DNA of 40,994 nucleotides from a virus (taxonomy: Duplodnaviria > Heunggongvirae > Uroviricota > Caudoviricetes): IMG/VR virus record IMGVR_UViG_2617270943_000004, positions 1-40,994 of that record. One strand, given 5' to 3'. A model generated the notes under the pieces. The model was not told the DNA's origin. It worked only from the letters and a program-made list of their open reading frames with translations, and ran no database searches. The position numbers and the translations under genes were made by a program. Positions 1 through 39,317 of this stretch are shown piece by piece; the stretch's first letter is position 1, and each line of letters begins with the position of its first letter.

Positions 1-933
1 ATGGACAACGACAAAATTGATCAACACAGCGACGAAATTGAAGTTGAGAGCGAAGAAAAAGAACGCGGCAAAAAAATAGAAATAGATGAAGACCGACTCC
101 CCTCCCGGGCGATGGCAATTCATGAACATATCCGCCAGGATGGTGAAAAAGAGCTGGAACGCGACGCAATGGCGCTACTGTGGTCAGCCATTGCGGCGGG
201 TCTGTCGATGGGCGCTTCACTACTGGCAAAAGGGATATTTCATGTCGAACTGGAAGGCGTGCCGGGCAGTTTCTTGCTGGAGAATCTCGGTTATACCTTT
301 GGCTTTATTATCGTCATTATGGCCCGCCAACAATTATTTACCGAAAACACCGTGACTGCAGTACTACCCGTCATGCAAAAACCGACAATGAGTAACGTCG
401 GCTTACTTATGCGGTTATGGGGCGTCGTGCTGCTGGGTAATATTCTCGGGACAGGTATTGCGGCGTGGGCATTTGAATATATGCCTATCTTTAATGAAGA
501 AACTCGCGATGCATTTGTAAAAATCGGCATGGATGTGATGAAGAACACCCCCAGTGAGATGTTTGCCAACGCGATCATTTCCGGCTGGCTGATCGCCACT
601 ATGGTATGGATGTTTCCTGCAGCGGGTGCGGCAAAGATTGTAGTGATTATATTAATGACCTGGCTTATCGCCCTCGGAGACACCACCCACATCGTTGTCG
701 GTTCTGTAGAAATCCTCTATCTGGTATTTAACGGCACGCTGCACTGGAGCGATTTCATCTGGCCCTTCGCGCTGCCTACTCTGGCAGGAAACATCTGCGG
801 CGGCACCTTTATCTTCGCGTTAATGAGTCATGCACAGATCCGTAACGACATGAGCAACAAGCGCAAAGCAGAAGCACGACAAAAAGCAGAACGTGCGGAA
901 AACATTAAGAAAAATGATAAAAACCCGGCATAA
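1..933 (+). CDS. yfdC: Inner membrane protein, formate/nitrite transporter-family-like (host gene)
   Basis: Complete 310-aa ORF starting at base 1; hydrophobic multi-helix composition; recalled as the gene immediately upstream of argW in E. coli. Not verified by search. Confidence 0.55.
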   Translation: MDNDKIDQHSDEIEVESEEKERGKKIEIDEDRLPSRAMAIHEHIRQDGEKELERDAMALLWSAIAAGLSMGASLLAKGIFHVELEGVPGSFLLENLGYTFGFIIVIMARQQLFTENTVTAVLPVMQKPTMSNVGLLMRLWGVVLLGNILGTGIAAWAFEYMPIFNEETRDAFVKIGMDVMKNTPSEMFANAIISGWLIATMVWMFPAAGAAKIVVIILMTWLIALGDTTHIVVGSVEILYLVFNGTLHWSDFIWPFALPTLAGNICGGTFIFALMSHAQIRNDMSNKRKAEARQKAERAENIKKNDKNPA

Positions 934-1008: not shown

Positions 1009-1083
1009 GTCCTCTTAGTTAAATGGATATAACGAGCCCCTCCTAAGGGCTAATTGCAGGTTCGATTCCTGCAGGGGACACCA
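1009..1083 (+). tRNA. argW: tRNA-Arg (anticodon CCU)
   Basis: 75-nt cloverleaf read by hand: acceptor GTCCTCT/AGGGGAC, D stem GTTA/TAAC, anticodon stem AGCCC/GGGCT with loop CTCCTAA (anticodon CCT), T arm GCAGG-TTCGATT-CCTGC, encoded CCA. Confidence 0.85.
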
Positions 1084-1089
1084 TTTATC
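1069..1089. repeat. attL core: 21-bp direct repeat covering the last 15 nt of tRNA-Arg plus 6 nt downstream
   Basis: CTGCAGGGGACACCATTTATC is identical at 1069-1089 and 39297-39317. Confidence 0.75.
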
Positions 1090-1244
1090 AGTTCGCTCCC
1101 ATCCGCACCAGTCCGCAAAATCCCCTGAATATCAAGCCTTCCGTAGATTCACAGTTCGTCATGGTTCGCTTCAGATCGTTGACAGCCGCACTCCATGACG
1201 GGTAAAAAGTGGATAAAATAATTTTACCCACCGGATTTTTACCC

Positions 1245-2402
1245 ATGCTCACCGTTAAGCAGATTGAAGCAGCAAAGCCGAAAGAAAAACCATATCGCCT
1301 ACTCGATGGTAATGGCCTGTATCTTTATGTCCCTGTATCAGGGAAAAAGGTATGGCAGCTTCGCTACAAGATTGACGGTAAGGAGAAAATCCTGACCGTC
1401 GGAAAATATCCGCTTATGACTTTGCAAGAGGCAAGGGATAAAGCATGGACTGCGAGGAAAGACATCTCGGTTGGCATCGATCCGGTAAAGGCGAAAAAGG
1501 CTTCGTCTAACAACAATTCCTTTAGCTCCATTTACAAGGAATGGTACGAGCACAAGAAGCAAGTCTGGTCAGTAGGCTATGCAAATGAACTTGCAAAAAT
1601 GTTTGATGACGACATTTTACCCATCATCGGCGGTCTTGAGATTCAGGATATTGAGCCGATGCAACTGCTGGAAGTAATCCGCAGATTTGAAGATCGCGGT
1701 GCAATGGAGCGAGCAAATAAAGCCCGCAGAAGATGCGGCGAGGTTTTCCGTTACGCTATTGTCACTGGTAGGGCTAAATATAACCCGGCACCTGACCTTG
1801 CTGACGCCATGAAGGGATACCGCAAGAAGAACTTCCCGTTTCTGCCTGCAGACCAGATCCCGGCATTCAATAAAGCACTGGCAACATTTTCAGGAAGTAT
1901 CGTATCGCTCATTGCCACCAAGGTTTTACGCTACACAGCCCTAAGAACGAAAGAGCTTCGTTCCATGCAATGGAAGAACGTCGATTTTGAAAACAGGATT
2001 ATCACCATCGACGCCAATGTGATGAAGGGCCGCAAAATTCATGTGGTTCCTATGTCAGACCAGGTGGTTGAACTTCTCACTACGCTAAGCTCAATCACCA
2101 AACCAGTATCAGAGTTTGTTTTTGCCGGTCGCAACGATAAGAAGAAGCCAATCTGCGAGAACGCGGTGCTGCTTGTGATCAAACAAATCGGCTATGAGGG
2201 TCTGGAAAGCGGTCACGGATTCAGGCATGAATTCAGCACGATTATGAACGAGCACGAATGGCCTGCTGATGCTATTGAAGTGCAACTGGCACATGCCAAC
2301 GGCGGATCTGTGCGCGGTATTTACAACCATGCGCAGTATCTCGATAAGCGCAGGGAGATGATGCAGTGGTGGGCAGACTGGCTTGATGGGAAGGTTGATT
2401 AA
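1245..2402 (+). CDS. intS: Tyrosine integrase, P4-type, argW-specific (IntS-like)
   Basis: 385 aa from ATG 1245 (the ORF-track start at 1209 is an upstream GTG); directly downstream of tRNA-Arg; C-terminal region has recombinase-like HxxR and Y residues; recalled match to IntS of the KplE1/CPS-53 element. Confidence 0.8.
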   Translation: MLTVKQIEAAKPKEKPYRLLDGNGLYLYVPVSGKKVWQLRYKIDGKEKILTVGKYPLMTLQEARDKAWTARKDISVGIDPVKAKKASSNNNSFSSIYKEWYEHKKQVWSVGYANELAKMFDDDILPIIGGLEIQDIEPMQLLEVIRRFEDRGAMERANKARRRCGEVFRYAIVTGRAKYNPAPDLADAMKGYRKKNFPFLPADQIPAFNKALATFSGSIVSLIATKVLRYTALRTKELRSMQWKNVDFENRIITIDANVMKGRKIHVVPMSDQVVELLTTLSSITKPVSEFVFAGRNDKKKPICENAVLLVIKQIGYEGLESGHGFRHEFSTIMNEHEWPADAIEVQLAHANGGSVRGIYNHAQYLDKRREMMQWWADWLDGKVD

Positions 2403-2530
2403 AGAACAATAACAGCGCGTTGATATAACCTTTTTTAATAAACATAAAAACCAACAAACCATCTTTAATTAACAATCTGATTACTAAAGATTCTTATTTG
2501 AATGAGCCATCCTTGGCGATTTATATTATA

Positions 2531-4987
2531 TCAGGGAATTATCATATTCCCTGTTGTTACTATATATGGAGTATTTTCTGGCTCGTTGACTCTACTAACG
2601 CCACGCTCTACGTTTCCAGTGTGATTTAAGTAACTGCCACCTGATGTAATAGATTTCTGAAACTCTATTTTCCCACCTTGAAACGTATTCCCTGTAGAGT
2701 TTACTCTGAATGCTCCTGAAGCATTATTTATTTTGAATGCGCATGTTTCTCCGCTCAATATACATTGATTATTTTTATATGACATTGTTATTGGTCCACT
2801 TCCTGCCTCATCTTTATTTAAAGTAAAATGACTATTAAGCCCTGACGCTCCTGTTCCAGACTGTGAAACGTCATGTATTTTTACGATTTGCTCTGATGGG
2901 CCTTGAAAAATAAAACCAGTATTAGATAATGATCCGGACAGCATGCTAAACCGCGTTGCAGCAACAACATTCTCAAGACTTGAACCTGATCCTGAAACAT
3001 CACAATTAATTAGTTCAATCCAACTACCACCATAATATGAACCGTTTGAATTCCTGATATATGTCGATTCAATTTTCACCCTTTGGTTAAGAGAATCAGG
3101 CAGAGCATTCTCTGCTTGCTTGTTTAACACAATGTCACAGCCGAATATTTTTGCCCCACGCCCATAAACATTAGAGCTTTGGGTAAATCTAAGCCCTCTA
3201 TCGGCATCAGTTGAGTTTTCTCCAATAGTAACATCAATCAATGTGACGGCATCATTGTTTAATCTTGCACCTTTTGTAAATATTGCATGCAATATGTTAA
3301 GGTTGGTAACTTTTGAAGTTGCAATTAAATAATCTCCGAAATGATGGGTTACAGTTATATTATCTGCTGACTCACCATAATATTCACCACTGTTTGCAAT
3401 GCTTAAAAGACCATAATTATTATCAAATCGCAAATTGTGCTCAAACATACCGTGCGTTGTAAATGCACCATTTCTTGTTCCTGTTTCTCCGCAATCTCTT
3501 ACAGAGCAATAACTTGCACCACTAAAATCAACTACGTGCCTTCCTGAAATATTGCGTAATCTTCTTGCGTGGCATTCATATGCGTTATTGAATTGAACAA
3601 CATGATCGGACCCTGGAACTCTTGGGAAATTTGTTTCCGTATCATGAACAAAAACATTCCTGACCATGGCAGTTACAACCATTGGGTAAGGGTGATTAAA
3701 TCCATACCCGAGACAAATGTCAGCGTTATTTACGTATTCAAGGGACACAAGTGCGCATGATTGTTGACTGGCAAATGCATCGCCACCACCTGAAGCATCT
3801 GTTATGTTTTGATTCCATTTTACGCCTTTAAAAGCAATTCTTACATTTTCTATTGGGGTTACATTTCTATATGTCAATACCCTTCCGACATCAAGATGCC
3901 AGCCTGTTTTATAATCAACTCGCAATTGAGTTATTGCTCCACCACTGCCCTGCACTTGTGTCATTACATTTATTTCTCTACCTACGGTTCCCCCGCCAAC
4001 ATCCGATGACATAATAACCCACTGTCTATTCTCAAAAAGAGAGTTGTTCGTACACCAATATGTTGTATCTCCTTTTGATATTTTATTTGTTAGAGTAAAA
4101 GAGTCTATTATATCTCCAGCAGTGCCGCGAAATGCTAGAATGCCAGGAAAACGATAGTTACTTGGATTTGTAGATCCACTTCTATCAGGAATATGTCCTT
4201 CCGGAGCATTCCATATTATCTCCGTATCAGGCATATCAATTGCCAGGTCGCCGCGTGTAATTACAATATTGTTTGTTAGTATCAACTCTTTTATATTTGT
4301 TGTGATTTTTTTTGCTGGTGAGTTAATTGCTTTATGAAATGCTTCGGTGTTGTCAGCGCCATCTTTAGCTCCGAAATCCTCAAGCATAACATTATATATA
4401 TCATCTGATTTCCATACATTTCCTTCTGATGTGAAAATTATCGTTCCTCCGTTATCTGTCAATCCATCAGGATTAACACTACGGAAAAACCTTCCACCTC
4501 CTGAATAGCTGTCAGAGTAATATCCCCTCAGTCTTATAACCTGTCCATCATAACTTGGTTCAATTGTTCTCAATGTAGATATATCTTTGCATTCTCCTAT
4601 ATACTTATAGCCATCATCACTTTTCAGCAAATATGAAAACTGATCTGGATCGTACTTCAGCACATTAGGGAAATAGAACTGCTGTGATCCATATGCATCG
4701 TACACAGCCATAGAATGGCCTTGCACGGTTACGAATTTGGCAATCTGTCCGTTATATACAGGATAACCAGCAGCGTTAATGATGATTGGTTGCGAAACAG
4801 GAACGTGAGAGCCGTCTTCGTTTTCCACATAAACCTGAATCTGGTTTTCAGGATTTACAGGGTCAGTGTCAATTTTACCGATATAAATTTTGCCATTGGC
4901 ATTTGCTTTAAACGAGCGAGCTAAAGTAAATAACTGACTTGGTTGTGAAACAACAACGTTGTATAATTGTTCTGGCATAATAAACAT
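2531..4987 (-). CDS. Tailspike protein with P22-type N-terminal head-binding domain and a long divergent receptor-binding domain
   Basis: 818 aa; the first ~110 aa (NVVVSQP...[19 protein letters not shown]...INAAG...[13 protein letters not shown]...VLKYDPDQ) follow the recalled P22 gp9 head-binding domain; the remainder is G/S/N/T-rich, consistent with a beta-helix. Confidence 0.85.
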
Positions 4988-5000
4988 TCCGGAGAAAATA

Positions 5001-5501
5001 ATGAGTAAGAGACGTCACGAGGTAGTAACTCGGGAGCGCCTTATGGAGGTTCTCGATTACAATAAAGAAACAGGAATTTTCACTTGGAAAAAGAAATTAA
5101 GCGCCAGAGGTGCTGTTGGGAAAGTTGCTGGCACAATTTCTTATGGATATAACGCAATTAATATTGATGGCGTAAGATATTTTGCACATAGACTTGCCTG
5201 GCTGTATGTATATGGCGAATGGCCCAAACAAGAGATTGACCACATTGATAGAAATAGAAGAAATAACGCAATCTCAAACCTTAGGGATGTCAGCAGAGTC
5301 GTAAACGCATTAAATGTCGGACCTCGAAATAGCAATGCTGGAATCAAGGGGGTAACTTTCTGTCAAGCCAGAAATCAATGGCAAGCTCAGATAAATGTCT
5401 CAGGTAAAAACATAACCCTTGGGAGATTCAACACCATTGATGAAGCGGCTATAGCTTATAAGGCAGCAAACATGGTTGCTGACCATCTGTTGAGTAGGTA
5501 A
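5001..5501 (+). CDS. HNH endonuclease with AP2-like DNA-binding domain (free-standing homing-endonuclease-like)
   Basis: 166 aa; GGAG 7 nt upstream of ATG 5001; HNH-like motif [13 protein letters not shown]-terminal GIKGVTF...W.A.I...GK...[15 protein letters not shown] resembles an AP2 domain; paralogous to the ORF at 26109-26675. Confidence 0.65.
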
Positions 5502-5569
5502 TGTCTGTCATTTAATTTGCTCCAGATAAAAGGAATCGCCGCAGCATAGCTACGGTGAGTTTTGGGCAT

Positions 5570-5600
5570 AAAAAACCCAGACTAAGCTGGGTTGATTTTT
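5570..5600. terminator. Bidirectional intrinsic terminator
   Basis: Hairpin AACCCAG-ACTAAG-CTGGGTT (5574-5593) with an A-run upstream and T-run downstream, so it reads as a terminator on both strands; sits between the convergent HNH gene and the antirepressor-like gene. Confidence 0.5.
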
Positions 5601-5614
5601 ATGAAAAGATTAAA

Positions 5615-6340
5615 TTAGGCTGCGGTAGAAACATTAATTAGATTTCTCAATACTTCAACTCCTTTTAAGTTGTAGCGAAACGCCTCTACCTGTTTGCTGG
5701 AATGCGCCGATTTATCCAGGAAGAACTTCCCGTACTGCTCAGTTTTGAGGTTGTTTGCGTTAGCAATGCGACCAATCTTGTTGGCCGTTACTCCAAGCTG
5801 CTCTGCAACCTCCCCTGCTGAGTAGTAATGCTCTTCTATTGCCGGAAGAGGTATTGCATTAAAACCAACAAGCGGGTTGATTATAGTTGCTGCCGCTGTC
5901 TGCTTTGCCTCCGGCGCAAGATTTGGCATCAGATCGAACAGATTGGTAACAGCTTCAACCGTCATTTTCAGTGTTCGCGCTTGACGATACTCAACAAGTC
6001 CACTCGCTGATTTACCGCTTTTAATGTGTGCTTCCTGCATACTTTCAAGTTTGTCTACAAGTGTTCGGCGAACTGCTTTAGATTCGCGAGCAGCAACACG
6101 AAGCGCCTGCTTGATAGTCATGGAGATAACATCAATGTCAGCCCCGTTTTTCCGACCTACACTTTTTGTGTAGGTCTCGCCCTCCAATTCATCCTCAATT
6201 TTCTCGATGAATTTGTTGTTACGTACAGATGGCTCTCCACATAACTTGCGAGCTTCATTAACCATCATCAGAAGACTTTGGCTGTCAATGGTTTTATCCG
6301 TGACAACGGATCCGATGTTTGCTACATTCTTCAAAGTCAT
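5615..6340 (-). CDS. Phage antirepressor-like protein, C-terminal (KilAC/ANT-C-like) type; family tentative
   Basis: ATG at 6340 preceded by AAGGAA; the ORF-track start at 6391 is a GTG inside a terminator hairpin; lies in the immI-like block downstream of arc-like and Bro-N-like genes. Confidence 0.45.
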   Translation of the reverse strand: MTLKNVANIGSVVTDKTIDSQSLLMMVNEARKLCGEPSVRNNKFIEKIEDELEGETYTKSVGRKNGADIDVISMTIKQALRVAARESKAVRRTLVDKLESMQEAHIKSGKSASGLVEYRQARTLKMTVEAVTNLFDLMPNLAPEAKQTAAATIINPLVGFNAIPLPAIEEHYYSAGEVAEQLGVTANKIGRIANANNLKTEQYGKFFLDKSAHSSKQVEAFRYNLKGVEVLRNLINVSTAA

Positions 6341-6409
6341 TAGGCATTCCTTATGTGGTAGTAAGGGTGTGACATAGGCCGCCAGCAGCACACTGGCGGT
6401 TTTCTTTTT
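6335..6409 (+). ncRNA. Predicted sar-like antisense RNA overlapping the start codon and RBS of the antirepressor-like gene
   Basis: Plus-strand promoter-like TGACAA (6301-6306), 16-bp spacer, TACATT (6323-6328), and about 75 nt downstream a plus-strand intrinsic terminator (stem CCGCCAG/CTGGCGG 6379-6399, then TTTTCTTTTT). Nearby genes are on the minus strand, so the transcript would be antisense to the ATG at 6340. Confidence 0.35.
6379..6409 (+). terminator. Intrinsic terminator on the plus strand (3' end of predicted antisense RNA)
   Basis: 7-bp GC-rich stem, 7-nt loop, followed by TTTTCTTTTT. Confidence 0.55.
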
Positions 6410-6428: not shown

Positions 6429-7055
6429 TCAATGAATCCATTCCTCGCCGCGAAGTTTTGCCAGCATTGGCTGAGCGTTCTTTACGACAAAATTGTTGGT
6501 ATCAAGATTCTTCATTTCACGAAGAAGTGATTTCTTGGTTTCTTCTGACATGTAGCGAGTCTCATATGCAATATCGTAAATCCTTCCTGAAAGCTCAGAA
6601 CCAATTTGCTTCATTCCTGGGTAGATGTGTTTGCACATTTGTTGACTCTTCTCCATCCACAATTGTAAGTAGCAGAGATTAACCAGTTCTTCGTCAGTAA
6701 ACTGTTTTGCAATCGGTGAGCATTCTGCCTGCCGATCCAAAATATCCAGCACCCAGCGGCGGAACTCTTTGGCTACCGGAGTGCGAGCAAACATCGCGAT
6801 TAGGTGGGCACCGCGTAGTGAGAAAACTCGCACTTTTTTGCGATAATTTCCTGAGGTACTCACTTCGAGTACCTGAGTCATTCCGGCGCTAAACTCATCG
6901 CTATACTTGTTATAAATCATTGTTACTGCACGACTATTTGCGTATTTAAGTGCAGATGCAATATTAGATGATGTAAACCAAACACCATGCATATCACGGG
7001 TGGGCACCAACTCAACTCCGTGGAAGTTGTAATCTGATTTTGCTACAATATTCAT
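6429..7055 (-). CDS. Phage antirepressor, N-terminal Bro-N/AntA-like domain protein
   Basis: ATG 7055 preceded by AAGGAA; N-terminus MNIVAKSDYNFHGVELVPTRDMHGVWFTSSNIASAL resembles Bro-N/AntA antirepressor N-domains; follows the arc-like gene as ant follows arc in P22 immI. Confidence 0.6.
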   Translation of the reverse strand: MNIVAKSDYNFHGVELVPTRDMHGVWFTSSNIASALKYANSRAVTMIYNKYSDEFSAGMTQVLEVSTSGNYRKKVRVFSLRGAHLIAMFARTPVAKEFRRWVLDILDRQAECSPIAKQFTDEELVNLCYLQLWMEKSQQMCKHIYPGMKQIGSELSGRIYDIAYETRYMSEETKKSLLREMKNLDTNNFVVKNAQPMLAKLRGEEWIH

Positions 7056-7128
7056 GTTAGTTTCCTTGCATACGGTTACTGACATAGAGGCCCGGTTTGT
7101 GTTCGCGCACTGCCGGGCTTCGCTATTT

Positions 7129-7302
7129 TTACTGGGCATTAGCTCTTTCCTCTCTCAGGCTTTTAGCCAGTCGCTGCACAATCGCAGAGTTGATAGAAAT
7201 TCCATCCATTTCAGCAACACGTCTAATCTCCTCCTTCATTCGCGCTGGCAAACGAAGCTGGAAACTTTGACTTTTACGACCTGTGTAAAGCACATCTTTC
7301 AT
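7129..7302 (-). CDS. arc: Arc-like ribbon-helix-helix repressor
   Basis: 57 aa from ATG 7302 with GGGAGG RBS; FQLRLPARMKEEIRRVAEMDGISINSAIVQRLAKS follows the recalled P22 Arc pattern (FNLRWPREVLDLVRKVAEENGRSVNSEIYQRV). Confidence 0.7.
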   Translation of the reverse strand: MKDVLYTGRKSQSFQLRLPARMKEEIRRVAEMDGISINSAIVQRLAKSLREERANAQ

Positions 7303-7323
7303 AAGTAATCCTCCCACAATGAT

Positions 7324-7413: not shown

Positions 7414-7797
7414 ATGAGCAAGTTCCCTAGTCATGAAATGGATAGGTTCAATATCAGGCTTCCGGCAGGAATGCGGGATGCTATAGCCTTAAGAGCAAAG
7501 GAAAACGGCAGATCAATGAATACAGAACTAGTGTTTATCATTGATGATGCATTGAAGTCTCCGGTGCCTGCTGAGGTTGATAACTCAAGGATTATGAAGA
7601 TTTACTCAAACCTCTCCGAGAACAGGCCATCAAACAAAGAAGAGTTTGAGCGGTGGGAGAATGAGCTAGTCAAAGCAATTTTCTACTTACTAGATAGCAT
7701 AAGTTCTCATTCGCAAATGTATCAAGCTCTCAGGAGCTTAAGGCAAGATGCATATAAAAATGTTTTTGGCGATGATGCTGAAGACATCCAGTTTTGA
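7414..7797 (+). CDS. mnt: Mnt-like ribbon-helix-helix repressor with C-terminal extension
   Basis: 127 aa; GAGGT RBS; N-terminus FNIRLPAGMRDAIALRAKENGRSMNTELVFIIDDALKS follows the recalled P22 Mnt pattern (FNFRMPMEVREKLKFRAEANGRSMNSELLQIVQDALS). Confidence 0.65.
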   Translation: MSKFPSHEMDRFNIRLPAGMRDAIALRAKENGRSMNTELVFIIDDALKSPVPAEVDNSRIMKIYSNLSENRPSNKEEFERWENELVKAIFYLLDSISSHSQMYQALRSLRQDAYKNVFGDDAEDIQF

Positions 7798-7845: not shown

Positions 7846-8331
7846 ATGAAAAAATCACTGTTAATTATCCCGCTTCTGCTGGCTGGGTGCGCAAAAGTAA
7901 GCGACCATCAGGCAAGTTGCGAGCAACGCTATCCAAAGCTTAGCGATATGGCTAATTGCCTTGATGCCAGCGTGAAGAACGACTCACGCATGGCATCAGC
8001 ACCAACACCTAAGCTGTATGTCCTTGCTGCGAAAATGCTCGGGCAAGGTGTCGATGAAGGCAAGATAAGTGACGCACAGGCAAGACTTGAGCTTCAGAAT
8101 CTTTATGTTCAATTACAAAGCCAAGAACAAGCACAACAAATAGCACAAAGCCAAGCATTCCAGCAGGCTTTATTGAATTATCAGGCTGTAAACACAATGC
8201 AAGCGATCGAGCAAAAAGCGCGCCAGCCTGTTATAACTCAACCTTACCCAACACGCGTTGACACCTATACAAACTGCAATTCAGGATTTGGAAATACCGT
8301 CACATGCAACAGTAGCAGCAACATTAGATAA
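7846..8331 (+). CDS. Predicted lipoprotein, glutamine-rich (accessory gene in the sieA position)
   Basis: 161 aa; AAGGAGAG RBS; signal peptide MKKSLLIIPLLLAGC with lipobox LAGC; Q-rich central segment; sits between mnt-like and the ejection-protein genes. Confidence 0.6.
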   Translation: MKKSLLIIPLLLAGCAKVSDHQASCEQRYPKLSDMANCLDASVKNDSRMASAPTPKLYVLAAKMLGQGVDEGKISDAQARLELQNLYVQLQSQEQAQQIAQSQAFQQALLNYQAVNTMQAIEQKARQPVITQPYPTRVDTYTNCNSGFGNTVTCNSSSNIR

Positions 8332-24507: not shown

Positions 24508-24752
24508 GCTCTACCCCTTCATTGAGGGGATTTGCTCTATTTAATTAGGAATAAGGTCGATTACTGATAGAACAAATCCAGGCTACTGTGTTTAGTAATC
24601 AGATTTGTTCGTGACCGATATGCACGGGCAAAACGGCAGGAGGTTGTTAGCGCAACCTCATGCCACCCGCTTTCACGAAGGTCATGTGTAGAAGGCCGCA
24701 GCGTAACTATCACTGATGAATTCAGGATAGCCAGTGGCTACGGCTCAGTTAT

Positions 24753-24828
24753 GGTGCTGGTTAACGGACTTGAACCGCTACCCATTCGCTTACAAGGCGA
24801 CTGCTCTACCATTGGAGCTAAACCAGCA
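24753..24828 (-). tRNA. Phage-encoded tRNA-Thr (anticodon UGU)
   Basis: 76-nt cloverleaf on the minus strand: acceptor GCTGGTT/AACCAGC, D stem GCTC/GAGC, anticodon loop CTTGTAA, T loop GG-TTCAAGT-CC, encoded CCA. Confidence 0.6.
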
Positions 24829-24833
24829 TATTT

Positions 24834-24908
24834 GGCGGGACAGCGTGGACTCGAACCACGATAAGAAGGTTAACAGCCTTCCGTAATGACCTTTATACGA
24901 CTGACCCA
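24834..24908 (-). tRNA. Phage-encoded tRNA-Asn-like (anticodon GUU)
   Basis: 75 nt on the minus strand: anticodon stem GAAGG/CCTTC with loop CTGTTAA, T arm CGTGG-TTCGAGT-CCACG, encoded CCA; acceptor stem has one U-U mismatch and the D stem is weak. Confidence 0.5.
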
Positions 24909-25531: not shown

Positions 25532-26134
25532 TCATGCGGCCTCACTTCTGCTATTTCGCAGGTCTTTGAGTTTCTGCTGATACTCCGCCTTGATGGCCCG
25601 GCACTCTTCGACAGTCCAGCGATGGCGGTTATGGTTTGATTCGATTTCGTCTACTGCTTCCTGCCCGATGCGATTAATCAGTTCGACGCGATACGGAACG
25701 AGATTTCCGCTTTTGTGCTGGTTGCACACCACGCATTGCTTGTGAATATTGCGTTCATCAAATCGGAGTTGAGGTGCCGCAGCAGTTGTCCGGTAATGTC
25801 CGGCATCCCACTGAGCAGACGTGAGCGTTCCGCACGAGATACATGGTAAGTCGCGGTCTCTTTCTCTGATGAAGGCGTTTACGGCTTGTTGGGCTTGTTT
25901 AATCCAGTAACTGCGGGGCTTTAAGGCGAGTTTTCGAATCTTAAGTTTATCTTTCTGTTTCTGCTCCTCTCGTCGTCGTTTCTTCTCTGCTGCTTTTTCC
26001 GCTTTTTCGCGTTCTTTGCTTCGTCGTTCGAGTGCTATCTTGGTTCCACAAATCTCATTACACCAATATTGATTTTGATATTTTGGTATAAACCATTCAT
26101 TGCAACATTTACATTTCCTTCGATAGATTCGCAT
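25532..26134 (-). CDS. ninG: NinG (Rap)-like recombination-promoting nuclease
   Basis: 200 aa from ATG 26134 with AAAGGAG RBS; Cys-rich N-terminus and lysine-rich [21 protein letters not shown] segment; recalled NinG features. Confidence 0.65.
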
Positions 26135-26675
26135 AAGTGCTCCTTTCGTTGCCGGAAAAATCACCGTAATACTTATCTCGGGCTTCTTCAGCAACTAGTA
26201 CCGCTAACTCCAGATCATCAAAGCATCCGAAGTGTTTACTCTTGCCATGGAATCCTAGCCTAACATTCCATTTTTTCTGTCGTTTGTGCCAAGTAACCCC
26301 TCTGCAACCTGATTTGCTATTCTTTCGGATCCTTATATTTCTTGAATTTTCTATTGGCAGGCATTCTCTTAAATTTTCTGGCCTATTGTCGGTCCTAATT
26401 CCATTAACGTGGTCAATTTGACCAGCAGGCCAACGATTATGAGTTATGTAAAAAACTAAGACGTGAGTTTTATATCTACGCCCATCTATCATGATCATTG
26501 AATAACCGTTGGAATCAAAAGTTCCAGCAACACTATTTAATGCTATCCTTCCCTGAGTGGGAACTTTCCATCTAAATACCCCGGTAGATTTATCGAAACT
26601 TAGTAACTCAAATATCCTTTTAACAGTTAAATCTTCTCTTTTACGGTTACGTCGTCTTCGCGCTGGTTTAGCCAT
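26109..26675 (-). CDS. HNH endonuclease with AP2-like domain (second copy)
   Basis: 188 aa; HNH-like [19 protein letters not shown]2-like [47 protein letters not shown]; overlaps the ninF stop by 8 nt and the ninG start by 26 nt. Confidence 0.65.
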
Positions 26676-38987: not shown

Positions 38988-39003
38988 TTGCAGGTTCGAT
39001 TCC
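38988..39003. repeat. 16-bp displaced copy of the tRNA-Arg T-arm
   Basis: TTGCAGGTTCGATTCC is identical to tRNA positions 1054-1069; lies 293 bp upstream of the attR core. Confidence 0.6.
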
Positions 39004-39022
39004 CTATTCGGAGATAGCACTC

Positions 39023-39223
39023 ATGCAACACGAACTACAGCCTGATTCCCTGGTTGATTTGAAATTCATCATGGCCGATACTGGCTTCGGTAAAACCTTC
39101 ATCTATGACCGGATTAAGTCCGGAGACCTGCCTAAAGCCAAAGTTATCCACGGGCGAGCACGATGGTTATATCGTGACCATTGTGAATTCAAAAATAAGC
39201 TCTTAAGCCGCGCTAATGGGTAA
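39023..39223 (+). CDS. torI: Excisionase / recombination directionality factor, AlpA-TorI family
   Basis: 66 aa; GGAG RBS; sits between the tRNA T-arm copy and the attR core; recalled as the partner of IntS in KplE1; symbol tentative. Confidence 0.55.
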   Translation: MQHELQPDSLVDLKFIMADTGFGKTFIYDRIKSGDLPKAKVIHGRARWLYRDHCEFKNKLLSRANG

Positions 39224-39296
39224 ATTAGCGGGTAAAATATTTCTCACATCTAAAAAATACCATTCTAATCAATCCCCTGCCACCTCAAGTAGATGT

Positions 39297-39317
39297 CTGC
39301 AGGGGACACCATTTATC
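39297..39317. repeat. attR core (21-bp direct repeat of attL)
   Basis: CTGCAGGGGACACCATTTATC identical to 1069-1089; inverted CCCCTGC at 39284-39290 just upstream. Confidence 0.75.

Follow-up and report, generated by a model that had tools for sequence, protein, structure and literature searches.

The window analysed here, the whole 40,994-nucleotide stretch of the virus record IMGVR_UViG_2617270943_000004, holds an apparently complete Escherichia coli prophage of the P22 type (Lederbergvirus), resembling CUS-3 and Kapi1 and integrated at a tRNA-Arg(CCT) gene, and our subject is its tailspike gene. The gene is an intact open reading frame (ORF) of 818 amino acids (aa), its interval including the stop codon (Table 1), and its RefSeq homologues are labelled 'phage tailspike protein'. 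Two in-frame ATG codons stand at its 5' end, at 4987 and 4978; RefSeq annotation and gene calling in public assemblies both start at the second, which gives 815 aa, and the identical 815-aa product is recorded on contig JNPK01000022.1 of GCA_000703725.1, the probable source of the window. Taking the domain, homology, fold and genome survey data together, we put at roughly 0.8 the probability that this gene encodes the tailspike of a CUS-3/Kapi1-like prophage, a mosaic of a conserved head-binding domain and a foreign beta-helix cassette that would cleave a host polysaccharide. The likeliest candidate for that polysaccharide, at lower odds of its own, is the K40 antigen.

Architecture of the tailspike gene

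The N-terminal part of the protein is that of a P22-like spike. Pfam PF09008 (Head_binding) matches aa 4-116 with 214.8 bits against a cut-off of 24 (E 2.9e-64), and in a search of all PDB sequences Sf6 gp14 (7sg7), ~89% identical in the head-binding domain, aligns over aa 7-118 (E 4.5e-62) and P22 gp9 over aa 9-189 (~1e-51), the latter alignment being gapped and of low identity beyond aa 118. A preliminary description of the window had confined the likeness to P22 to the first ~110 aa, and the strong alignment to Sf6 and P22 is indeed limited to aa 7-118. Counted in blocks of 30 aa, identity to the Kapi1 spike is 100% over aa 1-90, 83% over aa 91-120 and ~30% from aa 121, while DNA matches to ~1100 other E. 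coli prophage tailspikes end at gene nucleotide ~335-356. Conversely, identity to ESCO8_00245, a tail spike of the phi92-like myovirus vB_EcoM_ESCO8 (Justusliebigvirus), begins at aa 121, where that to Kapi1 collapses (after ~aa 118). The loss of one identity, the onset of the other and the ends of the DNA matches place the joint directly after the conserved YDPDQF motif.

Beyond this joint the protein has nothing recognisable of P22. The remaining ~700 aa exceed the rest of the 666-aa P22 protein, as the preliminary description had also held, and are without P22-like similarity; tblastn with the C-terminal part gave no matches to P22-like phages. The G+C content of the gene is 0.37-0.41, compared with 0.48 in the remaining prophage, which outside the receptor-binding part is ~95% identical at the nucleotide level to CUS-3, phiv205-1, Kapi1 and others. 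The tailspike is a mosaic in which the conserved head-binding domain gives way, at the YDPDQF junction usual for such spikes, to a foreign cassette.

Similar arrangements are known from P22 gp9, Sf6 gp14, HK620 gp9, the CUS-3 endosialidase spike and Kapi1 gp67, which have in common the head-binding domain, the YDPDQF junction and a beta-helix architecture, and whose genes follow the immI region and lie beside int/att, as in the window. The receptor part of the window's spike, in contrast, has no sequence similarity to the receptor parts of any of them, is ~150 aa longer than that of P22, and adds a neck of the CBA120 TSP2 type. Since exchange of receptor domains is an established route to host-range change among P22-like phages, the architecture is unsurprising, and the intact gene is another case of this well-known exchange. 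The spikes of P22, Sf6, HK620 and CUS-3 are trimers that attach to the tail hub via the head-binding domain, and their beta-helix binds and cuts polysaccharide, bringing the particle to the outer membrane. By analogy with these studied spikes, the head-binding domain (aa ~4-116) would dock a spike trimer onto the tail hub, and the beta-helix would bind and cleave a long-chain surface polysaccharide of the host, through lyase or hydrolase chemistry, drawing the virion to the outer membrane and setting its host range. The earlier suggestion that a foreign, longer receptor domain behind a conserved head-binding domain implies another polysaccharide specificity is backed by the domain, homology and fold results.

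Along the prophage, the ejection proteins, Arc/Mnt-like repressors, antirepressor, tailspike, intS and argW succeed one another, so ordered that the tailspike is the last late gene, downstream of immI. It had been pointed out that the gene abuts the integrase with no serotype-conversion genes between them, and this is borne out: the spacer between the two stop codons measures 128 bp and holds no ORF, and no gtrABC/oac-type or acyltransferase gene turned up in it or among the prophage ORFs scanned, whereas P22 and Sf6 carry a serotype-converting gene (gtrABC or oac) beside the tailspike. The same adjacency is found in the RefSeq homologue (with the same spacing) and in Kapi1, and the CUS-3 record aligns across the same stretch, so the missing conversion gene is the standard layout of the CUS-3/Kapi1 subgroup, whose P22-like prophages sit at tRNA-Arg(CCT), and no peculiarity of this prophage.

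The receptor-binding cassette and its relatives

The cassette opens with a neck (aa 121-221) that matches CBA120 TSP2 (5w6p residues 14-115 and 6w4q residues 255-356, E ~3e-12) as well as Pantoea WceF (6tgf). The neck domain is common to these proteins, and the likeness stops where the beta-helix starts. In the structural model the neck has a predicted local distance difference test (pLDDT) score of ~85-97 over most of its length, and aa ~225-818 are predicted to form a right-handed parallel beta-helix with a C-terminal part. The fold class is clear in this prediction, and a Foldseek search of BFVD agrees on it, the search leaving lyase and hydrolase unseparated; among the closest known systems we count the Klebsiella K1 capsule depolymerase/lyase (PDB 9k4a, 7w1c). 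Pfam and NCBIfam scans of aa 118-818 found no family with a Pfam copy that lacked the PF27114 model, and precomputed annotations assign PF27114 (Phage_tail_beta) to the exact protein and its relatives; a literature search on PF27114 gave nothing usable. PDB sequence searches, made with the single sequence and with a 25-sequence profile, matched only the head-binding domain and neck and returned no solved relative of the beta-helix.

In the alignment of 25 sequences, which reaches down to ~20% identity, Y359, D487, H512, E516, H517 and N577 are invariant and R483, H484, H549 and D579 nearly so. We take these residues as candidates for the active site that the spike would possess if it cleaves its glycan. 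A beta-helix that merely binds the glycan, its cleaving activity lost or never present, would agree with the failure of homology to assign any catalytic residue and of sequence searches to detect a solved relative, and we regard this as improbable. An activity label is offered by the best PHROG match (phrog_8280, 'colanic acid degradation', E 3.2e-98), which covers only aa 10-233 and positions 7-185 of the 632-position profile. We rejected the label because the match is to the head-binding and neck region and not to the catalytic part; automatic annotation that adopts it would transfer a wrong activity to the tailspike gene.

The cassette has few close relatives. A word-indexed search of 5.8 billion proteins gave 16, including one 99% cluster with 180 members and eleven proteins that are 58-71% identical, and an exhaustive HMMER scan with aa 225-818 against 1.84 billion cluster representatives returned 116 at E <= 0.001, only 14 of them at E <= 1e-30. 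One relative, from Klebsiella pneumoniae, is 62-63% identical. On close relatives the module follows Tail_spike_N (PF18668), a 47-aa stub (ESCO8) or, in one case, a divergent head-binding domain without the neck. The receptor-binding domain is thus no orphan: it belongs to a small, uncharacterised family that other phages carry on a minimum of three further N-terminal adaptors and that has a member in a phi92-like myovirus.

That member, ESCO8_00245, is 70% identical over aa 121-817, spanning neck, beta-helix and C-terminus, and carries, where the window's spike has the head-binding domain, an N-terminal adaptor of 47 aa. ESCO8 is a lytic myovirus of 149 kb, whereas the spike of the window belongs to a temperate P22-like prophage. 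The published description of the ESCO8 protein goes no further than calling it an 'additional tail spike' in the place of phi92 gp143 (PMC10269720). A search for full-length near-identity to an already characterised tailspike returned none, this uncharacterised protein being the best phage record. Identity between the two spikes drops to 43-57% at aa 181-240 and aa 631-690, so the specificity of ESCO8 may differ from that of the window's spike.

Polysaccharide loci of the lysogens and the candidate substrate

Of 5426 complete E. coli genomes, 15 have the tailspike gene (98.3-99.3% nucleotide identity), and 14 of these carriers have, between galF and gnd, a six-gene cluster, wzy-wzx-orf3-GT4-pssD-pssE, that occurs in 67 of the genomes overall (1.2%); one genome, 1344_LBHALD, is rearranged. 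By exact-sequence look-up, the proteins of the cluster fall into UniRef clusters O30626 ('Putative O-antigen polymerase'), O30628 ('Uncharacterized protein') and O30629 ('Putative GlcNAc transferase', for N-acetylglucosamine, GlcNAc), and others into clusters named 'N terminus / C terminus subunit of GlcA transferase' (glucuronic acid, GlcA). These consecutive entries of 1997-98 (the O30626 series) we take to be the six-ORF K40 cluster of E. coli O8:K40:H9. Amor and Whitfield reportedly described that cluster in 1997, with orf1 as Wzy, and Amor et al. are said to have found in 1999 that orf3 adds L-serine to GlcA. The K40 repeat unit is GlcA(Ser)-GlcNAc-GlcNAc, and the GlcNAc and GlcA transferase names in the six-gene cluster fit this composition. 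The serine-adding enzyme of K40 is cited in PMC13463779.

We therefore tentatively favor, at somewhat less than even odds, the K40 antigen, as the polymer made by the six-gene cluster, over the O8 mannan as the substrate of the spike. The odds are set there because the names and the gene order fit, the identity of the cluster having been judged by names and order and not by sequence alignment. Literature searches on ST410 (sequence type 410) together with a prophage tailspike, and on the K40 gene cluster, gave nothing usable.

The O8 polymannose O-antigen was the receptor first considered. In the ST410-like lysogens checked, the complete set of O8 genes (wzm/wzt/wbdD/A/B/C) lies between gnd and hisI, and an endo-mannosidase of the type known biochemically from coliphage Omega-8 might be found in these hosts simply since most of them are O8; the Klebsiella pneumoniae relative would also agree with such a target, Klebsiella O5 being chemically identical to E. 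coli O8 (PMC7685785). However, the lysogen 2020CK-00188, which has the closest copy of the tailspike gene (99.3%), different housekeeping alleles and a six-gene cluster that is 97% identical, has no O8 wzm/wzt cluster, its wzzB adjoining hisIE. A second carrier, SWYH.B349aT, likewise lacks the O8 cluster, and in WCHEC025943 the O8 manC is a pseudogene with an internal stop. The absence of the cluster from 2020CK-00188 led us to downgrade O8, which we now consider very unlikely as the target, and to favor K40.

The ST410-like hosts themselves present two his-linked polysaccharide loci, a six-gene K40-type and an O8 mannan locus, for example at 1854462-1877626 of NZ_CP027205.2, and in the his-linked region of WCHEC025943 and K71-77 the O8 wzm/wzt mannan cluster lies between gnd-ugd-wzz and hisI. 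The Prokaryotic Genome Annotation Pipeline (PGAP) names the six-gene wzx 'O8 family O-antigen flippase', yet 2020CK-00188 has this wzx without the O8 mannan genes, so that 'O8' calls based on wzx may report K40 and not O8.

Several observations weigh against K40 as substrate and, in part, against the wider assignment. The link from the O30626 series to K40 is a presumed one and not the outcome of a sequence comparison, and the case is built on the O-loci of other lysogens and not of the window's own host. The receptor-binding family is uncharacterised in every member; ESCO8, the nearest relative among phages, has an O78 strain as its isolation host; and in the structural model aa ~300-365 and the final ~110 residues are weakly predicted (pLDDT 40-65). 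SWYH.B349aT, the sole carrier without the six-gene cluster, has an O125-type cluster with a frameshifted wzx. Finally, at least 12 of the lysogens share one ST410-like backbone (identical WP accessions, same map position), so that the co-occurrence amounts to about two independent lineages.

The last two points bear on a further explanation, in which the pairing of gene and cluster reflects clonal descent only and the receptor is colanic acid, enterobacterial common antigen, an unrecognised capsule or an O-type since lost from the lysogens. Most lysogens do sit on one backbone, and ST410 has been reported with more than 70 O-types and frequent O-type switching (PMC12753057); the prophage of SWYH.B349aT occupies the same map position as in the ST410-like genomes, a pattern compatible with replacement of the O-locus after lysogeny. 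The PHROG label and the growth of ESCO8 on an O78 host would likewise point to another glycan. On the other hand, the PHROG match is confined to adaptor and neck, the second lineage, with its diverged alleles, also pairs the gene with the six-gene cluster, and a chance pairing is improbable for a cluster of such low frequency. We consider descent without a K40 receptor unlikely, and retain K40 as the candidate substrate.

A wider proposal may be built on K40, which we regard as possible but rather doubtful. The receptor module could be the first depolymerase identified for the K40 antigen with its serine substituent (K_LPS / group 4 capsule), which is co-expressed with O8 in the high-risk clone ST410. 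It would represent a beta-helix family without a solved structure whose conserved site, rich in His and Arg, is unusual, and it might be a lyase for an amidated uronic acid. Temperate podoviruses and lytic myoviruses of the phi92 type would trade the family in exchanges that the HNH gene beside the tailspike may promote. The practical value is that an uncharacterised depolymerase family, present also in the lytic phage ESCO8, is named together with a concrete, testable candidate substrate: the polysaccharide of K40 type found in O8:K40 strains, among them the ST410 lineage resistant to carbapenems. If K40 is the substrate, the spike would offer a typing or decapsulation reagent for the ST410 clone and would represent a new class of enzymes for glycans substituted with amino acids.

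The HNH insertion and the surrounding prophage

The 5' end of the tailspike gene has been remodeled by an HNH-AP2 endonuclease gene on the opposite strand. In a three-way alignment, GGAGCAAATTAA-ATGACAGACATTATAACCAATGTT of an HNH-less homologue leads directly into the spike; ATGACAGACATTATAACCAATGTTGT lies at the 5' end of HNH-less tailspike genes. The window retains the same ribosome-binding site together with ATGACAGACATTA at 5499-5523 on the minus strand, where they overlap the HNH stop codon; after this relic start come ~500 bp of the HNH gene in antisense and then the new tailspike start (ATGTTTATTATG...). The ancestral ribosome-binding site and ATG are thereby stranded ~520 bp upstream of the tailspike, the affected region being 4978-5523, and, compared with the HNH-less homologue, the coding sequence is recoded as far as codon ~29, with near-identity afterwards. 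The viable phage Kapi1 shares this arrangement.

The junction of HNH gene and tailspike occurs in 14 of the 5426 genomes, none of which has this receptor module, so the gene of the window is a further recombinant. The cassette looks like a homing-endonuclease insertion and could promote recombination at the tailspike locus. A second HNH-AP2 gene lies in the nin region (26109-26675, minus strand) and is 36% identical to the copy beside the tailspike (E 2e-31). Between the HNH gene and the 258-aa ORF lies a hairpin (5574-5593) that scores as a terminator in either orientation and is kept both in Kapi1 and in the homologue lacking the HNH gene; late transcription must pass this hairpin and then the HNH gene in antisense to reach the tailspike.

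Table 1. Features of the tailspike locus and its surroundings, in window coordinates
Feature	Position	Strand	Basis
Tailspike gene	2531..4987	-	ORF list, RefSeq homologues
Head-binding (virion-attachment) domain, aa 4-116	4640..4978	-	Pfam PF09008, Sf6/P22 structures, Kapi1 identity
Module junction, aa 117-120, directly 3' of the YDPDQF motif	4628..4639	-	DNA match ends, Kapi1/ESCO8 identity switch
Neck domain ahead of the beta-helix, aa 121-221	4325..4627	-	CBA120 TSP2 and WceF sequence matches
Predicted right-handed parallel beta-helix and C-terminal part, aa 225-818; presumed polysaccharide-binding/cleaving module	2534..4315	-	
Candidate active-site stretch (R483, H484, D487, H512, E516, H517, H549, N577, D579)	3251..3541	-	25-sequence alignment
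HNH-AP2 endonuclease gene, inside the first tailspike codons	5001..5501	+	Pfam HNH_3 (E 2.1e-16), AP2
Remnant of the original ribosome-binding site and start codon of the tailspike gene (GGAGCAAATTAAATGACAGACATTA), split off by the HNH cassette	5499..5523	-	
Spacer of 128 bp between the convergent integrase and tailspike stop codons; no ORF	2403..2530	.	
IntS-type tyrosine integrase	1209..2402	+	Pfam Arm-DNA-bind_3, Phage_int_M, Phage_integrase; intS in homologous locus
tRNA-Arg(CCT) (argW), 1009-1083, and attL core, 1054-1089, 6 bases beyond the gene	1009..1089	+	ARAGORN, direct repeats
Host gene yfdC	1-933		
ORF of 258 aa, no family match	5615-6391		
Antirepressor	6429-7139		
Arc and Mnt-like repressors	7129-7317 and 7414-7797		

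The ends of the prophage (attL/attR) are marked by the direct repeats 1054-1069 / 38988-39003 and 1064-1089 / 39292-39317; the CUS-3 record aligns from 1054, and a lacY-type host gene lies beyond the right end. RefSeq begins the integrase a few codons downstream of 1209. The remaining content comprises ejection, head and packaging genes, the nin region, a repressor and recombination genes.

At the right end, the two separate repeats of the argW 3' end (38988-39003 and 39292-39317) enclose a 66-aa ORF (39023-39223) with no Pfam match, and the region 38988-39317 may represent either an excisionase region belonging to the phage itself or what is left, beside attR, of a different element integrated at argW. 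Genes for tRNA-Thr(TGT) and tRNA-Asn(GTT) lie within the prophage at 24752-24907 on the minus strand, immediately downstream of a Q-type antiterminator gene. Between the immI region and the ejection-protein genes lies an ORF of 161 aa (7846-8331, plus strand) that matches no family and whose product has a lipoprotein-type signal, MKKSLLIIPLLLAGC; in this prophage without gtr and oac it is a possible candidate for a moron or exclusion gene.
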